Positions 4,924 to 19,139 of a stretch of DNA of 23,029 bases are shown here, one piece after another. The notes below the pieces were generated by a model. The model searched no databases, was not told where the DNA came from, and was given only the letters and a program-made list of their open reading frames with translations. The stretch comes from a virus (taxonomy: Duplodnaviria; Heunggongvirae; Uroviricota; Caudoviricetes). The stretch lies in IMG/VR virus record IMGVR_UViG_2703718857_000002; one strand, written 5' to 3'. Every line of letters begins with the position of its first letter. Position 1 is the first letter of the stretch. Both the position numbers and the translations under genes were made by a program.

Positions 4924-5187
4924 ATGATTTTAATAAATAAATACACTCCTCCAACGCAGGAAGATTTAGCCAGACTGAAATCCGCAATAAACTACTCCGG
5001 AAACCAAATGGCAGGGCTCGCAGGTGTAGCCAGCGATAGCCAATGGCGGAAATACACTGGCGGAGAGAGCCCCAGGGTAATGTCAAGACACATACTGTTT
5101 TATATTGCAGCTCAGCTTGTTCTGTCTGATGAGCAACTTAACAATGTAATAAATAAAATGCGCGATATTGGCGCGGAGATAAAATAA
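4924..5187 (+). CDS. Small XRE-type helix-turn-helix protein, 87 aa; putative regulator of the downstream acyltransferase
   Basis: ATG at 4924 with AAGAG-type Shine-Dalgarno (the ORF track starts at GTG 4900). Segment ...GNQMAGLAGVASDSQWRKYTGGESPRVMSRHILFYIAAQL... fits an XRE-like HTH pattern. Its stop overlaps the acyltransferase ATG (TAATG). Confidence 0.55.
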   Translation: MILINKYTPPTQEDLARLKSAINYSGNQMAGLAGVASDSQWRKYTGGESPRVMSRHILFYIAAQLVLSDEQLNNVINKMRDIGAEIK

Positions 5188-6278
5188 TGCTTGGCCTAAT
5201 AAGGTTTTTTTTGGCATCGTGCGTCATTGCTTTTCACTTAACGGCTCGCATACCTGCACTTGGCAACTTTGCAGTGAATTGCTTCTATGTTATCAGTGGT
5301 TTTTTAATAACATACATTTTGCATGAAACATACAAGTTCAACTTCTCTATGTTTTGGAAAAATAGAATACTGAGGTTATTCCCGGCATATATATTTTTTC
5401 TCGTCATGGGCTTTCTTATTATAAAATTAATTCCATCCGCAAAGGAATTCCACTCAAACTGGACAGGCAATTTCTTACCTGGAGATTTATTAGGAAACCT
5501 CTTAATCTTCCCCTGGGCTTTCCTTTCTGATAATGCTGTAGCAAATCCATTCGGTGCCTTTTCATCCATTTATCACTTTGCTATTGATGGTAATAGATTC
5601 AGAATAGTCACATCATCATGGTCAGTGGGTGTTGAGATAACATGTTATTTTTTATTGTGGCTTTTCATAGCCCGAAATAAATTTACAGCCATTACGTCGA
5701 TTCTGCTTTCACTGCTTTATCATGCTTACGTATATGTAGTACACCATTCTTTTGATATGGCGTATTTCCCATTCCTTGCTGCAACACTTCCTTTTAGCAT
5801 GGGTTCTCTGGGTTATTTTGCCCATAGAAAGTTCAAAGCTATGTATCTTTCTCCACACAAAGCTTTTTTAATAACATTTATTTGCATCGGGATTTTTATT
5901 ACCAATTGGTATTTATATACAATTAATGCATTAGGTCAGTACAACATAATACTTTACTACACCAATAATGTAATAGCATTGTTTACAACCCTGGTATTAT
6001 TAAAAATAAAGACAAACATACATCTTGAGAAAATACTCAAGTGGTTTGGTGACCTGGCCTATCCAATTTTTCTTTGTCAATATTTTGGTGGATTTCTAGC
6101 ATGGCTTGCTATTGGTGGTGAAAATCGTGGCTTATCCATCTTTTTATTAGGCTACCCAATATCAATTGCACTTGGGATCGTTTGTGTAATATTAATAGAC
6201 AAGCCACTAATTAAAATTAGAGCAAAAATAAGGGCGGACGCTCAAAGCAAAAATAATCAGGAAAACTCTTCAAGGTAA
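5187..6278 (+). CDS. Acyltransferase family 3 (AT3) integral membrane protein, 363 aa; probable O-antigen/LPS O-acetyltransferase (Oac/OafA-like)
   Basis: N-terminal His in the first hydrophobic segment (...VIAFHLTARIPALG...) and the VNCFYVISGFLIT motif typical of AT3 acyltransferases; multiple hydrophobic segments throughout. Gene body is visibly AT-rich, roughly one-third G+C by eye. The LPS substrate is inferred from the prophage tail-fibre context. Confidence 0.8.
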   Translation: MLGLIRFFLASCVIAFHLTARIPALGNFAVNCFYVISGFLITYILHETYKFNFSMFWKNRILRLFPAYIFFLVMGFLIIKLIPSAKEFHSNWTGNFLPGDLLGNLLIFPWAFLSDNAVANPFGAFSSIYHFAIDGNRFRIVTSSWSVGVEITCYFLLWLFIARNKFTAITSILLSLLYHAYVYVVHHSFDMAYFPFLAATLPFSMGSLGYFAHRKFKAMYLSPHKAFLITFICIGIFITNWYLYTINALGQYNIILYYTNNVIALFTTLVLLKIKTNIHLEKILKWFGDLAYPIFLCQYFGGFLAWLAIGGENRGLSIFLLGYPISIALGIVCVILIDKPLIKIRAKIRADAQSKNNQENSSR

Positions 6279-7068: not shown

Positions 7069-7743
7069 TTAAACGTAACCAGAAGCGATATCAAATATTC
7101 TGGCAAACTCAGGCGTGACTTCGTAAACCCCCTCATCGTTAAAACCGAAATAGATATAGCCGAATTTGACCAGGGTGTATGAGGGGGCGAGGGCATTAAT
7201 CCGGCATTCAAGCTGACGATTACCCCAGGAACGTAATGGATCGCCACAATAACTCAGACCTGCACGGGCATAAGTTATCGTTGTGTCTTCCGCCTCTACC
7301 AGCCAGACAAATGGCCAGTCATCCCCATTTAGCCCGTCACCACATACCGATAAGCCAGCACGCGCCTGCCGGTATTCCTTAATCGAAATCGTATAACCCA
7401 TTGCTGCGGCAATACTGATGAAATAGCTCTTTGACTGCCCGCCGGTACTGATGAGTTTCGATACAATGGCAGACTGACGCTTCGCAATCGTATCCACTTC
7501 GCCAATCGAGCAATCATCAGGTAAGCCGAGTGTTTTTTCCCACTCGGTGAGCATAATCGTCGCAGTTTTTGGAAAGGCACCGCGCAGCAATGCAAGTGCG
7601 TCGTTATCACTACGCTGGAAACTGGCCGCAATGGCCCGCAGCACAGCAGCCTGAACAGCTTTTGGATCCCGTGTCCACGCTCGGCCGGTGGGGATAAGCG
7701 CCTGCAGTGCCTTCTGATAATCGTCTGTTGAGAAAAGGCTCAT
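7069..7743 (-). CDS. Baseplate protein, DUF2313 / Mu gp48-like (YmfQ-like), 224 aa
   Basis: N-terminus MSLFSTDDYQKALQALIPTGRAWTRDP...TEWEKTLGLPDDC matches the conserved start of Mu gp48-family proteins. ATGA overlap with the upstream J-like gene. Confidence 0.75.
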   Translation of the reverse strand: MSLFSTDDYQKALQALIPTGRAWTRDPKAVQAAVLRAIAASFQRSDNDALALLRGAFPKTATIMLTEWEKTLGLPDDCSIGEVDTIAKRQSAIVSKLISTGGQSKSYFISIAAAMGYTISIKEYRQARAGLSVCGDGLNGDDWPFVWLVEAEDTTITYARAGLSYCGDPLRSWGNRQLECRINALAPSYTLVKFGYIYFGFNDEGVYEVTPEFARIFDIASGYV

Positions 7744-16226: not shown

Positions 16227-16697
16227 TCAATTTAAGCACTGCTCTTTGATGTATTCCTGCAAATATCCAACCTGTTTCGTCACTGTGACGATTCGCTCTC
16301 TGAGGGTGAAATAATCCCGTTCAGCGGAGTCAGTAAGTCGGGGGCCGGTAACATCGCCCAGGCCGCCGGTGCTGGTCGTTCCGTTCGCGGGACAGTTTGC
16401 GTTGAGCTGCAGCCGCTTACGGCCAGCAATGACATCGCTATGCAGACGCTCAATGGTTTCTTTCGCATCAGCCAGTTCTCCGGTGTATTTGGCATCCAGT
16501 GCAGCGACATCACGCTGGCGGGTCTGCATGTCTTTAATGGTGGCGGTCGCCAGGAGGAGTTTCTCAGTGGCCTTATCGCGCTGGTCTCTGTAAGTGATGG
16601 CGTTGTCGCGGTAGTGGTTCACGAAGAAAGCCAGTGCGCCGATTAACGCCAGCACCAGCAACTGCAGCCAGTAACGCTTAACCAGTGCGCTAATCAT
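16227..16697 (-). CDS. Rz-type i-spanin, 156 aa
   Basis: N-terminal transmembrane segment ([17 protein letters not shown]) followed by a charged coiled-coil-like region; ATGA overlap with the lysozyme gene; contains the embedded Rz1 frame. Confidence 0.8.
16280..16468 (-). CDS. Rz1-type o-spanin lipoprotein, 62 aa, embedded in Rz in an alternative frame
   Basis: [22 protein letters not shown]... has a lipoprotein signal with lipobox cysteine, followed by a proline-rich mature region (...[19 protein letters not shown]). Start taken at the internal ATG at 16468. Confidence 0.75.
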
Positions 16698-17134
16698 GAC
16701 AGGAACAGAGCTCGCTCTGCCTCCCGCCGACGTGTCAGCCCATTCAGCACCTTCCCACCAGCTTTATTCCAGCGCAGGAACTCATCGGCTGCACCAGCGT
16801 AATCTCCGGCGTTGAGTTTTCGCAGGAGAGTCGATGTCGACAATGACCGCGCACCGAGGTTATACGTGAACGACACCAGGGCATCGAATTGCCCCTGAGT
16901 CAGGCCAACTTTAACCAGTCGTGACACGTCACTTTCGTAACTGACCATTCCTGTCTTCAGCAGGCGTTCTGCCGTTTCCTGCTTAATTGTCATCCCGGCA
17001 CGGATTGGTTTCCCGTCGACGGGCTGAGTCCAGCCATAACCGATCGTCCAAACGCCGACGCTGTCCTGATAGGCAGTGAGCTTGCAACCTTCGAACTCTT
17101 TGATCAGGGCAATGCCTTTATCACTGGTTTGCAT
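16694..17134 (-). CDS. Phage lysozyme (T4-type, GH24; P22 gp19-like), 146 aa
   Basis: Translation [34 protein letters not shown]... ending ...[12 protein letters not shown] closely parallels P22 lysozyme, including the catalytic Glu in EFEG. Confidence 0.9.
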
Positions 17135-17438
17135 TCTTCATCCCCGTCAAGCGTTCCCAGAAATAGGTCAGAGCCACTGAACCCATCGCCCCGCTAATGC
17201 CGGACGTGACAAGGATCATGTGAAAACTCAACCCACTCTCCACGCTTATCAACCCGCCAATCAAACCGGTAAAGCCGGAGACAGCGATCTGTGCCAGCGC
17301 GTTTATCCAGCTCCATGTCGCTTTATTCTGCTTTACGTCGATCAGGTAGCGAACTAAACCGCCCCAGCATGCAATGCCGAGCAGGACTAACCAGGACAGG
17401 CCTACAATTTTGTGGTCGTCATTCATACGCTTTGCCAT
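17121..17438 (-). CDS. Holin (lambda S-like class I), 105 aa
   Basis: ATG at 17438 with GGAGGTG Shine-Dalgarno; the ORF-track start at 17630 lacks an RBS and crosses the terminators. Three hydrophobic segments and a charged C-terminus; N-terminus MAKRM offers two in-frame starts separated by Lys-Arg. Confidence 0.8.
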   Translation of the reverse strand: MAKRMNDDHKIVGLSWLVLLGIACWGGLVRYLIDVKQNKATWSWINALAQIAVSGFTGLIGGLISVESGLSFHMILVTSGISGAMGSVALTYFWERLTGMKNANQ

Positions 17439-17510
17439 ATCACCTCCGAAGGAACGGGGTGCTGTTTGTGTAGAGTGGAAGGATGCCAGGAAACAACGAC
17501 CGGACATCGC

Positions 17511-17537
17511 AAATAAAAAAGCCAGCGACAGGCTGGC
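17511..17537 (-). terminator. Rho-independent terminator (proximal) in the Q-like/holin intergenic region
   Basis: Minus-strand hairpin GCCAGC-CTGTC-GCTGGC followed by TTTTTTATTTG. Confidence 0.55.
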
Positions 17538-17610
17538 AATGTGAGGGTAAGGCAATGTCGGCTCTCTGGCCGAAGGGTCCCAGGTAGTGGGTTCTGTGTG
17601 CTGCGTACCG

Positions 17611-17641
17611 CAAATAAAAAAGCCCCGCACGATGGCGAGGC
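17611..17641 (-). terminator. Rho-independent terminator (distal) in the Q-like/holin intergenic region
   Basis: Minus-strand hairpin GCCTCGC-CATCGT-GCGGGGC (one G-U pair) followed by TTTTTTATTTG; shares the flanking AAATAAAAAAGCC motif with the proximal terminator. Confidence 0.5.
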
Positions 17642-17707
17642 TCTTAATTCTTTGTCGACCTACGAAGCTATGGCGACGATATCAGATTTACATGAAATAT
17701 ATGCGTT

Positions 17708-18397
17708 TCAATCCAGTTTTGCAAGACTTGAGTCTAAATTTGTCGCCTTTTGTTGTGAACGTGATCGCGTAACCTGCAATAAAGCCCCGCTATCCAGTCG
17801 CAGGAAGATGCTGCGCATCTCAACCCAGCGGTCAGTAAAGGTCTCTGACCAGTTTTTTGGCGTTACGCCAACCAGCGACGCCAGCGCCTGATATTCGTAC
17901 GTCTCACGCCCTGCCAGCTCTGCTTTCACGTCCTGAGCCGCGAGCCAGACAAGCTTCTTCAGGCGCTCCATCGTTTTGCCGGCCACCTTCTTCGCGCCGA
18001 GCTGCTCCCGGAACTCTGCCCACGCCCATTGAGTGATTTCCACCTGATAGCACCAGCGCACGTTCTCGCTATAGTTCCATAGCAGCCACGCTTTCTGGTG
18101 TTCTTCGAGTGACATCAGTGCGCGGCGCCACGATGCGCTGGAGTATTCAACCGGCTGCACCAGGGGAATATGCGAACCCTTGGTATGCGACTGCTTGCCC
18201 GGTATTGGCGGGTTATCCAGCGTAATCATTTCCCCGGTCACTTCATCCAGCACTCGAGGCTTTTTACGTTTAAACGTTCCCGTATCGAACTGCGCGTTTT
18301 CAAGCCACGCCATCAACTGCCCTTTCGTCGCACCACTTAAATCGGCGGTGGCCACCATCAACTGCTGGCGCACGTATTCGAGAAATTGAGTATTCAT
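17708..18397 (-). CDS. Putative late-gene regulator (Q-like antiterminator by position), 229 aa
   Basis: Sits between NinG and the holin, where lambdoid Q lies, and is followed by terminators. Start taken at ATG 18397 (MNTQFLEYV...); the ORF track extends to 18490. No Q-specific motif such as a zinc finger is recognised, so the call rests on synteny. Confidence 0.4.
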   Translation of the reverse strand: MNTQFLEYVRQQLMVATADLSGATKGQLMAWLENAQFDTGTFKRKKPRVLDEVTGEMITLDNPPIPGKQSHTKGSHIPLVQPVEYSSASWRRALMSLEEHQKAWLLWNYSENVRWCYQVEITQWAWAEFREQLGAKKVAGKTMERLKKLVWLAAQDVKAELAGRETYEYQALASLVGVTPKNWSETFTDRWVEMRSIFLRLDSGALLQVTRSRSQQKATNLDSSLAKLD

Positions 18398-18527
18398 ACT
18401 GCACCGCCTATGGTTTTGATGTAGTTCTTCAGTATTCGGTAATCCGTCAGCACAGAGCCCGGAAAGTGGTATAAGCGCAATCGTTGCCAACGAACGCGGA
18501 GGTGATCGGCAAAATAGGATTCGAATG

Positions 18528-19139
18528 TCATGCTGCCTCCTGCTTTTTCAGCGCGCGCAGGTCAGCCAGCGCGGTCAGTCTGATTTCCTTCAGTTCTTCA
18601 ATAGTCCAACGATGCGGAGCGTTATTGTTCTCGAGCGCTAGTACCAGCTCTTCGCCATAACGTTCCACCAGCGCGGCTCGGTATGCTTCGATATTCCCGG
18701 ATTTGTAGACGTTGCAGACATCACACTGAAGATGGATGTTGAAGCGAGTGAAGCGCAGATGCCCAGCGGCTGCCGTAGTCCGATAATGGCCAGCATGCCA
18801 GGCGAACGCCGTTTTAGTTCCGCAGGAAATACAGCCCCGCCCCTCCGCCAACTCCGTCTCGCGGCAAATGTCATTTACGGCACGCTGCGTCAGGTCAATC
18901 CAGTGCTTCAGCGGCTTAACTGCAGCTTTACGCTGGCGCCAGGCTGCACGTTCTTTCTTCTCAGTGGCGCGCTGCTTGGCAGACTCTTTGCGTTGTGCAG
19001 CCTCCCGGGCTTTTCTGGTCTGCTCTTTCCCGACGGCGCTGGCGCACTCATAACCGCAGACGGTCTGCGTGTCGCGTACTGGATTGAACCACTGGCGGCA
19101 TTCCTTGTTGGCGCACTTCCGGCGCGGTAACTTAGCCAT
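18528..19139 (-). CDS. ninG: NinG (Rap) family protein, 203 aa
   Basis: MAKLPRRKCANKECRQWF...CISCGT...AGHYRTTAAAGHLRF...CDVCNVYKSGN... parallels lambda NinG, including the conserved Cys clusters. ATG at 19139 with GGGGGTG Shine-Dalgarno. Confidence 0.85.
   Translation of the reverse strand: MAKLPRRKCANKECRQWFNPVRDTQTVCGYECASAVGKEQTRKAREAAQRKESAKQRATEKKERAAWRQRKAAVKPLKHWIDLTQRAVNDICRETELAEGRGCISCGTKTAFAWHAGHYRTTAAAGHLRFTRFNIHLQCDVCNVYKSGNIEAYRAALVERYGEELVLALENNNAPHRWTIEELKEIRLTALADLRALKKQEAA

Follow-up and report, generated by a model that had tools for sequence, protein, structure and literature searches.

Two serial terminators between the Q82-type antiterminator and holin genes of an E. 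coli-type prophage: a probable late-operon leader with an IsrJ-family RNA and an empty cargo slot

The stretch of viral DNA considered here (the window; 23,029 nucleotides, Caudoviricetes, IMG/VR record IMGVR_UViG_2703718857_000002) carries two hairpin-plus-U-tract terminators on its minus strand, in the short interval between a gene for a Q antiterminator and the gene for a holin. On this strand the stop codon of Q at 17708 is followed by about 45 nt of leader, terminator 1, a 17-nt linker and an 84-nt segment that includes terminator 2. A further 72 nt separate the tail of terminator 2 from the holin ATG. The features of the locus are listed below, together with the lysis genes that follow them.

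17708..18397, minus strand: Q antiterminator gene, Q82 type (Pfam PF06323 Phage_antiter_Q, E 8e-101).
17696..17724, minus strand: predicted late promoter of the pR' type, with -35 hexamer TTGCAA (17724-17719), 17-nt spacer and -10 hexamer TATATT (17701-17696).
17612..17692, minus strand: putative IsrJ-family leader RNA of about 80 nt (conserved 5' block, small hairpin, terminator hairpin).
17612..17645, minus strand: terminator 1, the tR' equivalent (stem 17645-17618, 11 pairs including 6 G-C, 6-nt loop; U6AUUU tail to about 17612).
17595..17611, minus strand: empty-slot linker GCGGTACGCAGCACACA, where relatives carry tRNA genes or other cargo.
17511..17594, minus strand: module B, a conserved trailer of about 85 nt (hairpins 17591-17579 and 17572-17559, then terminator 2).
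17511..17537, minus strand: terminator 2 (stem 17537-17521, GCCAGC-CUGUC-GCUGGC, 6 pairs including 5 G-C, 5-nt loop; U6AUUU tail 17520-17511).
17624-17609 and 17523-17508, minus strand: copies 1 and 2 of the 16-mer GGCTTTTTTATTTGCG (CGCAAATAAAAAAGCC on the plus strand), exactly two in the window.
17121..17438, minus strand: class III holin, first gene of the late operon (Pfam PF16083; ATG at 17438).
16694-17134, minus strand: lysozyme (Pfam PF00959), after the holin gene.
16227-16697, minus strand: Rz (Pfam PF03245), after the lysozyme gene.

The cassette lies on the same strand as its neighbours, directly 3' of Q and 5' of the lysis and morphogenesis genes, which is the position of a pR'-qut-tR' region. 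Genes for the small and large terminase subunits, the portal and the tail are found further downstream of Rz, while NinG and DUF1367 genes precede Q. With a Q82-type Q on its 5' side and holin, lysozyme, Rz, terminase and portal genes on its 3' side, the interval therefore corresponds to a lambdoid late-operon leader. The Q protein most likely comprises 229 aa from the ATG at 18397 (MNTQF...), the maximal open reading frame (ORF) reaching 18490. It shares 72% identity with the Q of phage 434, annotated as 'Q82-like', and 70.5% with that of Gifsy-1. A sequence search for a solved structure of a Q82-type Q returned none.

A terminator scan of the Q-holin interval identifies exactly two minus-strand sites, 101 nt apart. 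This agrees with the preliminary description of the locus, which had reported two terminators about 100 bp apart upstream of the holin start. The folding free-energy check proposed there also shows that neither hairpin is thermodynamically weak: terminator 1 folds with -16.9 kcal/mol (z -4.1; 1 of 200 dinucleotide shuffles as good) and terminator 2 with -10.9 kcal/mol (z -4.0; none of 200). The stem of terminator 1 occurs in relatives as two alleles, both of which maintain pairing (AGCCUCGCC/GGCGGGGCU and AGCCCGAGG/CCUUGGGCU). Terminator 2 combines a G+C-rich stem, a short loop, a U tail and an evolutionarily maintained stem, the properties of an intrinsic (Rho-independent) terminator.

Terminator 1 is part of a larger RNA. 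A permissive Rfam scan of positions 16500-19000 gave one strong match, to the isrJ family (RF01393; 68.7 bits for a gathering score of 37, E 6e-12), covering the full model (1-75 of 75) at 17692-17619 on the minus strand. The architecture of this family, a small 5' hairpin and a 3' terminator hairpin, is found in the consensus alignment, and both hairpins appear in the minimum free energy and centroid folds. Terminator 1 is the 3' hairpin of the model and ends about 80 nt from the start. The short structured RNA suggested earlier for this locus thus finds a family. The same model recovers the Gifsy-1 RNA (100.3 bits) and a second relative, locus L021 (60.2 bits). IsrJ was described in Salmonella Gifsy-1 as a 74-nt RNA, encoded in the interval from STM2614 to STM2616, which influences effector translocation (PMC2330248). 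It is expressed from a transcription start of its own and ends at a Rho-independent terminator (PMC4825925). The discrete Hfq-associated RNA of about 74 nt is known from Salmonella only (PMC2330248), and the 5' and 3' ends proposed here for the leader RNA are predicted by homology to that mapped molecule.

Relatives of the leader were collected by scanning viral contigs with the exact first 25 nt of the isrJ-type RNA, which gave at least 120 loci, or 160 sites when all loci collected are counted. The exact first 25 nt of module B, used in the same way, likewise gave at least 120 loci. Counts of sites given below are among the matches listed. A Q homologue (43-100% identical to that of the window) ends 18-24 nt upstream of the isrJ-type RNA at 135 of the 160 sites. 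Seventeen other sites have Q further upstream, at 506-1092 nt in the inspected cases, with an insert between them; Gifsy-1, in which 883 nt separate Q from isrJ, is of this kind. Because of this linkage to Q, the IsrJ-type RNA is, on comparative grounds, the pR'-tR'-type late-operon leader of Q82-type phages, a class that includes lambda 6S RNA and StxS. Terminator 1 and its RNA form a new member both of the isrJ family and of this leader class. No description of IsrJ as a late-operon leader, Q82-type or other, was found in the literature searched.

The predicted late promoter overlaps the stop codon of Q. It matches the sigma70 consensus at 9 of 12 positions in a consensus scan, its assignment to sigma70 being by consensus and conservation. 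Among 80 distinct aligned relatives the -35 hexamer is invariant, the -10 hexamer is either TATATT or TACATT, and the spacer varies. Promoter and initial transcribed region are homologous to those found 3' of the phage 434 Q gene (TTGCAAAACTGGATT...CATGCAAATTTGGTATG), where a short leader and an annotated terminator follow. The preliminary description had expected the terminators to provide a handle on the late promoter, and the conserved site at 17724-17696 answers this expectation. A consensus scan of the interval between terminators 1 and 2 of the window revealed no promoter. The 5' block of the leader includes an extended -10-like sequence, TGATATCGT, at about +9 to +17, which is a candidate sigma70 promoter-proximal pause element. 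Its form matches that of phage 434 (TGGTATGTT).

Downstream of terminator 1, the stem of terminator 2 has been maintained in evolution. In 63 distinct module-B sequences, 96.8% of the cells of this stem are paired and four of its six pairs change on both sides (C-G/G-C, C-G/U-A, G-C/A-U/C-G). Neither the covariation score nor the number of compensatory cells is reached in any of 500 column shuffles, and sliding the 3' partner by 1-3 columns reduces pairing to 16-44%.

The two terminators frame a site of variable content. BLAST searches against phage genomes give a mosaic picture: matches to the end of Q together with the leader come from one set of phages, those to the holin gene and the 40 nt upstream of it come from P22-like phages such as ST64T, and terminator 2 is covered only by the Enterobacter phages ENT1, BHUENT3 and BHUENT6, as two pieces over 470 bp. 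ENT1 is about 97% identical to the window on both sides of the slot. It carries genes for tRNA Asn-GTT, Gly-TCC and Thr-TGT exactly between the tail of terminator 1 and a segment starting with GAACCCACTACC. Only about 25 nt extend from the U-tract to the first of these tRNAs, leaving no room for a separate tRNA promoter. In the window itself no tRNA was detected by ARAGORN, nor by Rfam between 16500 and 19000. Since its flanks are homologous to those of tRNA-bearing relatives, the window represents the empty form of the slot rather than a member of the late-leader tRNA cassettes.

The contents of the slot differ widely among the 61 listed loci that carry both modules. Twenty-six, including the window, have no tRNA and a spacing of 96-103 nt. 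Another 17 carry tRNA sets (Asn-Thr, Phe-Thr, Asn-Gly-Thr or Thr alone) with a spacing of 238-823 nt, some of them together with small ORFs. The remaining 18 have cargo in which no tRNA is detected (288-687 nt), mostly a structured element of about 190 nt with or without a small ORF; five have a different insert of about 190 nt. Seen from module B, 51 of the 120 listed sites present the empty linker ATTTGCGGTACGC[C/A]GCACAC[A/C] (near-variants occur at 4 more), while the 3' end of a tRNA-Thr adjoins the module at 38 and a tRNA-shaped element at 25. In cargo-bearing relatives module B directly follows the last tRNA or tRNA-shaped RNA, as in E. coli M37H, where the slot holds tRNA-Asn, tRNA-Thr and tRNA-Arg according to the RefSeq annotation. 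Across relatives the slot tRNAs are specific for Asn, Gly, Thr, Phe, Arg and Met. The empty form is found behind at least five unrelated leader types (26 isrJ-type sites; 8, 8, 5 and 2 for four others) which marks it as an established allele rather than a deletion peculiar to the window. In species-representative genomes the empty-junction 38-mer has no match and the module-B 25-mer has four, in Enterobacter and Pseudescherichia, a census that is uninformative.

Empty and occupied sites also differ in the tail of terminator 1, which reads U6AUUU in 25 of the 26 empty sites and mostly 3-5 uninterrupted U in sites with cargo. This is suggestive of a leakier terminator 1 at cargo sites, where terminator 2 would be the real stop. 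The tail is part of the junction haplotype, so that the difference in U-run is not independent evidence.

Several details of the cargo can be added. The element of about 190 nt, which replaces tRNAs at 25 of the 120 listed module-B sites (L021 2499-2700 and L007 1731-1859, both on the minus strand, L008, L049 and others), opens with a long hairpin, ACAACAGGAAAGAGCA...UGCUCUUUCCGUUGU, of variable loop. It continues with a tRNA-shaped RNA of about 130 nt that exhibits an acceptor-like stem (UGUGGUG/CGCCACA), a T-arm (AUCGG-UUCGAGU-CCGAU) and internal hairpins with compensatory variants. Neither ARAGORN nor Rfam gave a match to this RNA, even at permissive thresholds, and it may correspond to an undescribed phage RNA. 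At L054 (about 7300-7640, plus strand) and L090 (minus strand) an ORF ends within a remnant of tRNA-Thr, of which only the 3' half (GCTGCGCGTCAGAGGTTCGATTCC...) is present before module B; cargo insertion can therefore disrupt a resident tRNA. Five loci with a spacing of 289 or 430 nt (L037, L044, L063, L107 and L114) carry two first-terminator hairpins in series. An isrJ terminator with a poor U-tract (CUUUAUUUUAC) is followed by an insert of about 190 nt, after which a second hairpin, of the alternative allele (GCCCGAGGUU.AC.CCUUGGGCUUUUUUAUUUGCGG), precedes module B, so that these leaders include three terminators.

The sequence identities, the strength of the two hairpins, the covariation in terminator 2, the linkage to Q and the variable slot lead us to the following reading, to which we assign a probability of about 75%: the interval is the late-operon leader of a phage with a Q82-type Q, in which an IsrJ-family RNA extends to terminator 1 and the terminator of module B closes an empty cargo slot. 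Promoter activity, termination efficiencies and Q-dependent read-through would follow what is established for lambda, 82 and Stx phages. Transcription of the RNA of about 80 nt would begin constitutively at the promoter that overlaps the stop codon of Q. In the absence of Q most transcripts would end at terminator 1 (about 17612), giving rise to the short RNA. Terminator 2 (about 17511) would serve as a backstop that catches leaked polymerases and keeps holin and lysozyme silent. Q would engage the paused early elongation complex at its promoter-proximal site and allow it to read through both terminators into the holin, lysozyme, Rz and structural genes. In relatives with cargo the tRNAs could be excised from the read-through transcript. 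In the window the slot is empty and the two terminators consequently stand side by side. Tighter silencing of the late genes by two terminators, as first proposed for this locus, is a reasonable expectation under such a scheme.

A number of points weigh against this reading. The locus is known from its sequence and not from transcripts, and the Q-binding and pause elements of the Q82 type are at the level of candidates. The 5' end of the IsrJ-type RNA predicted by homology, 17692, is only 4 nt past the predicted -10 hexamer; the true start is therefore probably at 17690-17688, or the assignment of the hexamer is slightly off. Relatives were gathered by exact 25-mers, which biases the sample towards close relatives and makes conservation inside these 25-mers uninformative. 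Finally, the prophage is defective (see below), so that Q is perhaps never produced and read-through may be no more than a vestige in this host.

A broader picture can be proposed only tentatively. The space between the terminators might be a dedicated cargo site with conserved flanks (the hairpin and tail of terminator 1 on one side, module B on the other), through which at least five leader/Q-promoter types swap tRNA sets, the undescribed tRNA-shaped RNA of about 130 nt and small ORFs. In this picture module B would be a functional RNA or a processing signal even when the slot is empty, and IsrJ would be the late-leader RNA of the Q82 type. No description was found in the literature of a hypervariable cargo slot framed by two terminators and conserved flanks.

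The proposal that module B is itself functional, as an RNA (a small RNA (sRNA) derived from a 3' trailer, or a sponge) or as a processing signal, with terminator 2 as its 3' end, is compatible with the late-leader reading, and we hold it to be doubtful rather than improbable. Such an RNA would arise by read-through of terminator 1, as an isoform of about 180 nt, or by processing of the late transcript. The module is kept at the 51 cargo-free sites and behind at least five leader types, and it includes two small hairpins in addition to terminator 2, the first of which retains its stem with a different loop in M37H. A precedent exists in lambda, where LPR2 is a second Hfq-bound short RNA of the late operon close to 6S RNA (bioRxiv 10.1101/2024.10.31.621285). 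However, the small hairpins lie mostly inside the collecting 25-mer, so that their invariance is uninformative. The 101-nt segment as a whole has an unremarkable fold (z -1.85), the permissive scan gave no Rfam family for module B, and the module has no promoter of its own. The precedents of IsrK and StxS also prompted a calculation of duplexes between the IsrJ-like RNA and three possible targets, namely the downstream leader, module B and the holin start; their energies (z +0.9, +1.3 and -1.4) are no better than those of shuffled sequences.

The state of the prophage bears on a second alternative. Positions 23029-20762 of the window are 100% identical to the int-xis-DUF4060-recT region of mEp237 and HK225, with recT truncated at its 5' end, and adjoin, at about 20760, a nin region with 82% identity to that of SEN34. 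No repressor/immunity, N or replication genes are present, and the prophage is therefore a deleted, defective one of E. coli type. In E. coli KFu022 all that is left of Q is an 84-nt stub fused to part of recE. Promoter, leader RNA, the two terminators and the lysis genes are nevertheless intact there, and RefSeq annotates no RNA gene in this leader. The leader and terminator 2 could thus be neutral relics, now without function, which persist because the crippling deletion is recent. The missing immunity and replication genes, the Q stub of KFu022 and a C-to-A change that breaks a mini-hairpin of the linker in the window all point in this direction. Yet the arrangement is widespread in viral contigs of 40-55 kb, with compensatory evolution, and the 238-nt leader is 100% identical in several complete, unrelated E. 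coli chromosomes (RefSeq genomes; strains KFu022, ET881 and 20KM2222 are examples) with intact lysis genes, where leak-proof silencing would matter. Host phenotypes of IsrJ have moreover been reported in Salmonella (PMC2330248). We consider a neutral relic unlikely. In hosts of such defective prophages the short RNA may still be produced constitutively, and holin and lysozyme may still be doubly locked.

A third explanation stems from the 16-mer GGCUUUUUUAUUUGCG in which both terminators end. No further copy with up to 2 mismatches occurs in the window, the chance expectation is 0.04, and two copies were obtained in none of 100 shuffles; the 16-mer and folding shuffles rule out a chance origin of the repeats and hairpins. 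The preliminary description had seen in this sequence a shared motif preceding each terminator. The exact repeat was recovered but not its position, since on the transcribed strand it consists of the end of the stem, the U-tract and three more bases. It had also regarded the second terminator as a duplicate of the first. A tandem duplication for tighter late-gene silencing would account for an exact repeat beyond chance at both tails, 101 nt apart, and terminators in series would cut leak-through. However, the stems (GAGCCUCGCC...GGCGGGGCU and GCCAGC...GCUGGC) and loops are unrelated, only the tails match, and terminator 2 belongs to a separate module, which follows tRNA genes in phages with a different first-terminator tail. 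The U6AUU(U) tail (U6AUUU in the window) is common to many alleles of both terminators. The GCG after terminator 1 is the start of the empty-slot linker, CUUUUUUAUUUGCG being found in 25 of the 26 empty sites. After terminator 2 most relatives read (U)(U)CAGGC, and GCGAUG as in the window occurs at only 11 of the 120 listed sites, two of which carry tRNA cargo and a different terminator-1 tail; exact identity of the 16-mer is likewise limited to 11 of 120 related sites. The repeat therefore results from a combination of independently varying junction variants and is neither a duplication nor a functional shared element. Comparative data already contradict the duplication, which we regard as very improbable.

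A small protein encoded across module B by a 57-aa ORF (17613-17440, TTG start), whose frame is free of stops in the window and the close relatives inspected, was rejected for lack of a coding signal and can practically be dismissed, since its TTG lies inside the U-tract with no ribosome-binding site, its start region is replaced by tRNA in cargo-bearing relatives, its residues change radically where RNA pairing is kept (SHCQPVAG, SSSRPVAG, PYCPHVAG) and its C-terminal parts are unrelated between junction variants.

The closest known system is IsrJ of Gifsy-1. The two RNAs share the covariance family, the promoter hexamers, the first 30 nt, the two hairpins, the 3' terminator and a nearby Q of the same family. 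In the window the RNA directly follows Q, whereas in Gifsy-1 the isrK-orf45-anrP module (883 nt) splits Q from isrJ. Gifsy-1 also has a poorer U-tract (GGGGUUUUCCAUUU) and a tRNA-Arg about 230 nt downstream. The dependence of IsrJ on HilA and its invasion phenotype are Salmonella-specific reports. Between Q and anrP, the isrK region of Gifsy-1 (NC_010392, L002; 684-882) matches the Rfam families 'c4-a1b1' (48 bits) and 'C4 antisense RNA' (69 bits). In view of these matches the isrK-orf45-anrP insert looks like an antirepressor module of the P1/P7 immI type (c4-icd-ant).

Lambda 6S RNA, with its pR'-qut-tR' region, and StxS lie, like the leader of the window, after Q and before the lysis genes. 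They also have in common with it a short terminated transcript, a promoter that would here be constitutive as well, and the antitermination logic. They show no sequence similarity to it and are longer (194 and 258 nt, compared with about 80 nt). The Q family of the window (PF06323) also differs from that of lambda and Stx phages, and Q binding, pausing and read-through are predicted here by analogy. Both StxS and lambda 6S RNA bind Hfq; their synthesis is constitutive, and it is cut short at the terminator unless Q intervenes. Short pR'-tR' RNAs occur generally among lambdoid phages and are able to function as sRNAs (PMC7547250; bioRxiv 10.1101/2024.10.31.621285).

The comparison with the Q82 type was made through phage 434, phage 82 itself being outside the collections searched. 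Phage 434 has a homologous promoter and about 20 homologous first transcribed bases, including TGnTAT..T at about +9 to +17. The body of its leader and its terminator are unrelated to those of the window, and moron genes instead of module B are found downstream.

ST64T illustrates the converse situation. Its Q (Q21-type) and promoter differ from those of the window, but the plan is the same: a terminator ending in GGUGGCUUUUUUAUUUGGG, two tRNA genes, a homologous trailer (GCCTTACCCTC...) and the holin gene. The stem of its second terminator, GCCCAC...GUGGGC, differs from GCCAGC...GCUGGC by paired, compensatory changes. Phages L and Sf6 and the Stx phages resemble ST64T in carrying tRNA clusters in this slot, between the first terminator and the lysis genes, which in the window is free of tRNA genes. 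Only some P22-like phages have been noted to carry tRNAs at this 5' end of the late operon (PMC8022706), and the position is also known from other work (PMC2629481). A separate promoter has been mapped for the slot tRNAs of a Stx2 phage (PMC7547250); unlike it, the window and ENT1 have neither room nor signal for one.

Like the window, lambda would have at least two termination signals separating pR' from the late genes, with no homology between the two loci. In NC_001416 a second G+C-rich hairpin of 10 bp (GGCAGGAGGU...ACCUCCUGCC), followed by GUUUUG, lies about 100 nt before S. It has a weak U-tract and is not scored by a simple terminator scan. The scan also misses tR', because of its long loop, and is therefore not a fair census of terminators in lambda. 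Tandem terminators in the lambda late operon were reportedly observed by Luk and Szybalski in 1983. The idea that a lambdoid late operon has a single tR' is thus too simple, given the terminators that flank the tRNAs of ST64T, the lambda hairpin with UUUU before S and the presence of the module in at least 120 contigs. Right after tR', lambda also has the long hairpin (CACAACAGGUAAGAGCA...UGCUCUUUCCGUUGUG) with which the cargo element of about 190 nt begins. In L228 (NC_001416 44300-45400) this long hairpin and the second G+C-rich hairpin are at about 485-560 and 733-775. The long hairpin may correspond to the RNase III site documented for the late leader.

For the window the outcome is mostly clarifying: the 'duplicated terminator' would be a late-leader terminator and the closing terminator of an empty cargo slot. 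The identification of IsrJ and the picture of the slot are modestly new, useful as comparative points and unsurprising in kind. The literature treats IsrJ as a Salmonella sRNA encoded on an island; here it appears as a leader RNA after Q82-type genes in many enterobacterial prophages, and its place in the class of lambda 6S RNA and StxS suggests how it is regulated. The leader slot of the late operon appears to be prone to recombination, with very diverse contents in a two-terminator frame. Whether slot tRNAs are cut out of the late transcript or have a promoter to themselves is a question raised for phage L (PMC8022706), to which the present relatives contribute arrangements with no room for a separate promoter. 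In defective prophages with an intact holin and lysozyme, two serial terminators may keep these genes harmless.

Two further observations concern other genes of the window. The N-terminus of the holin, MAKRM (17424-17462, minus strand), has two Met separated by Lys-Arg, the pattern of a dual-start holin/antiholin. Its Shine-Dalgarno sequence GGAGGUG is predicted to pair with CACCCC, forming a small hairpin just upstream that recalls the structure controlling the start of lambda S; this start segment is 90% identical to that of ST64T gene 13. On the opposite strand (5187-6278, plus), a gene for a 363-aa protein similar to O-acetyltransferases and O-antigen acetylases is flanked by ORFs matching tail-fibre and baseplate proteins and is likely a lysogenic-conversion moron.

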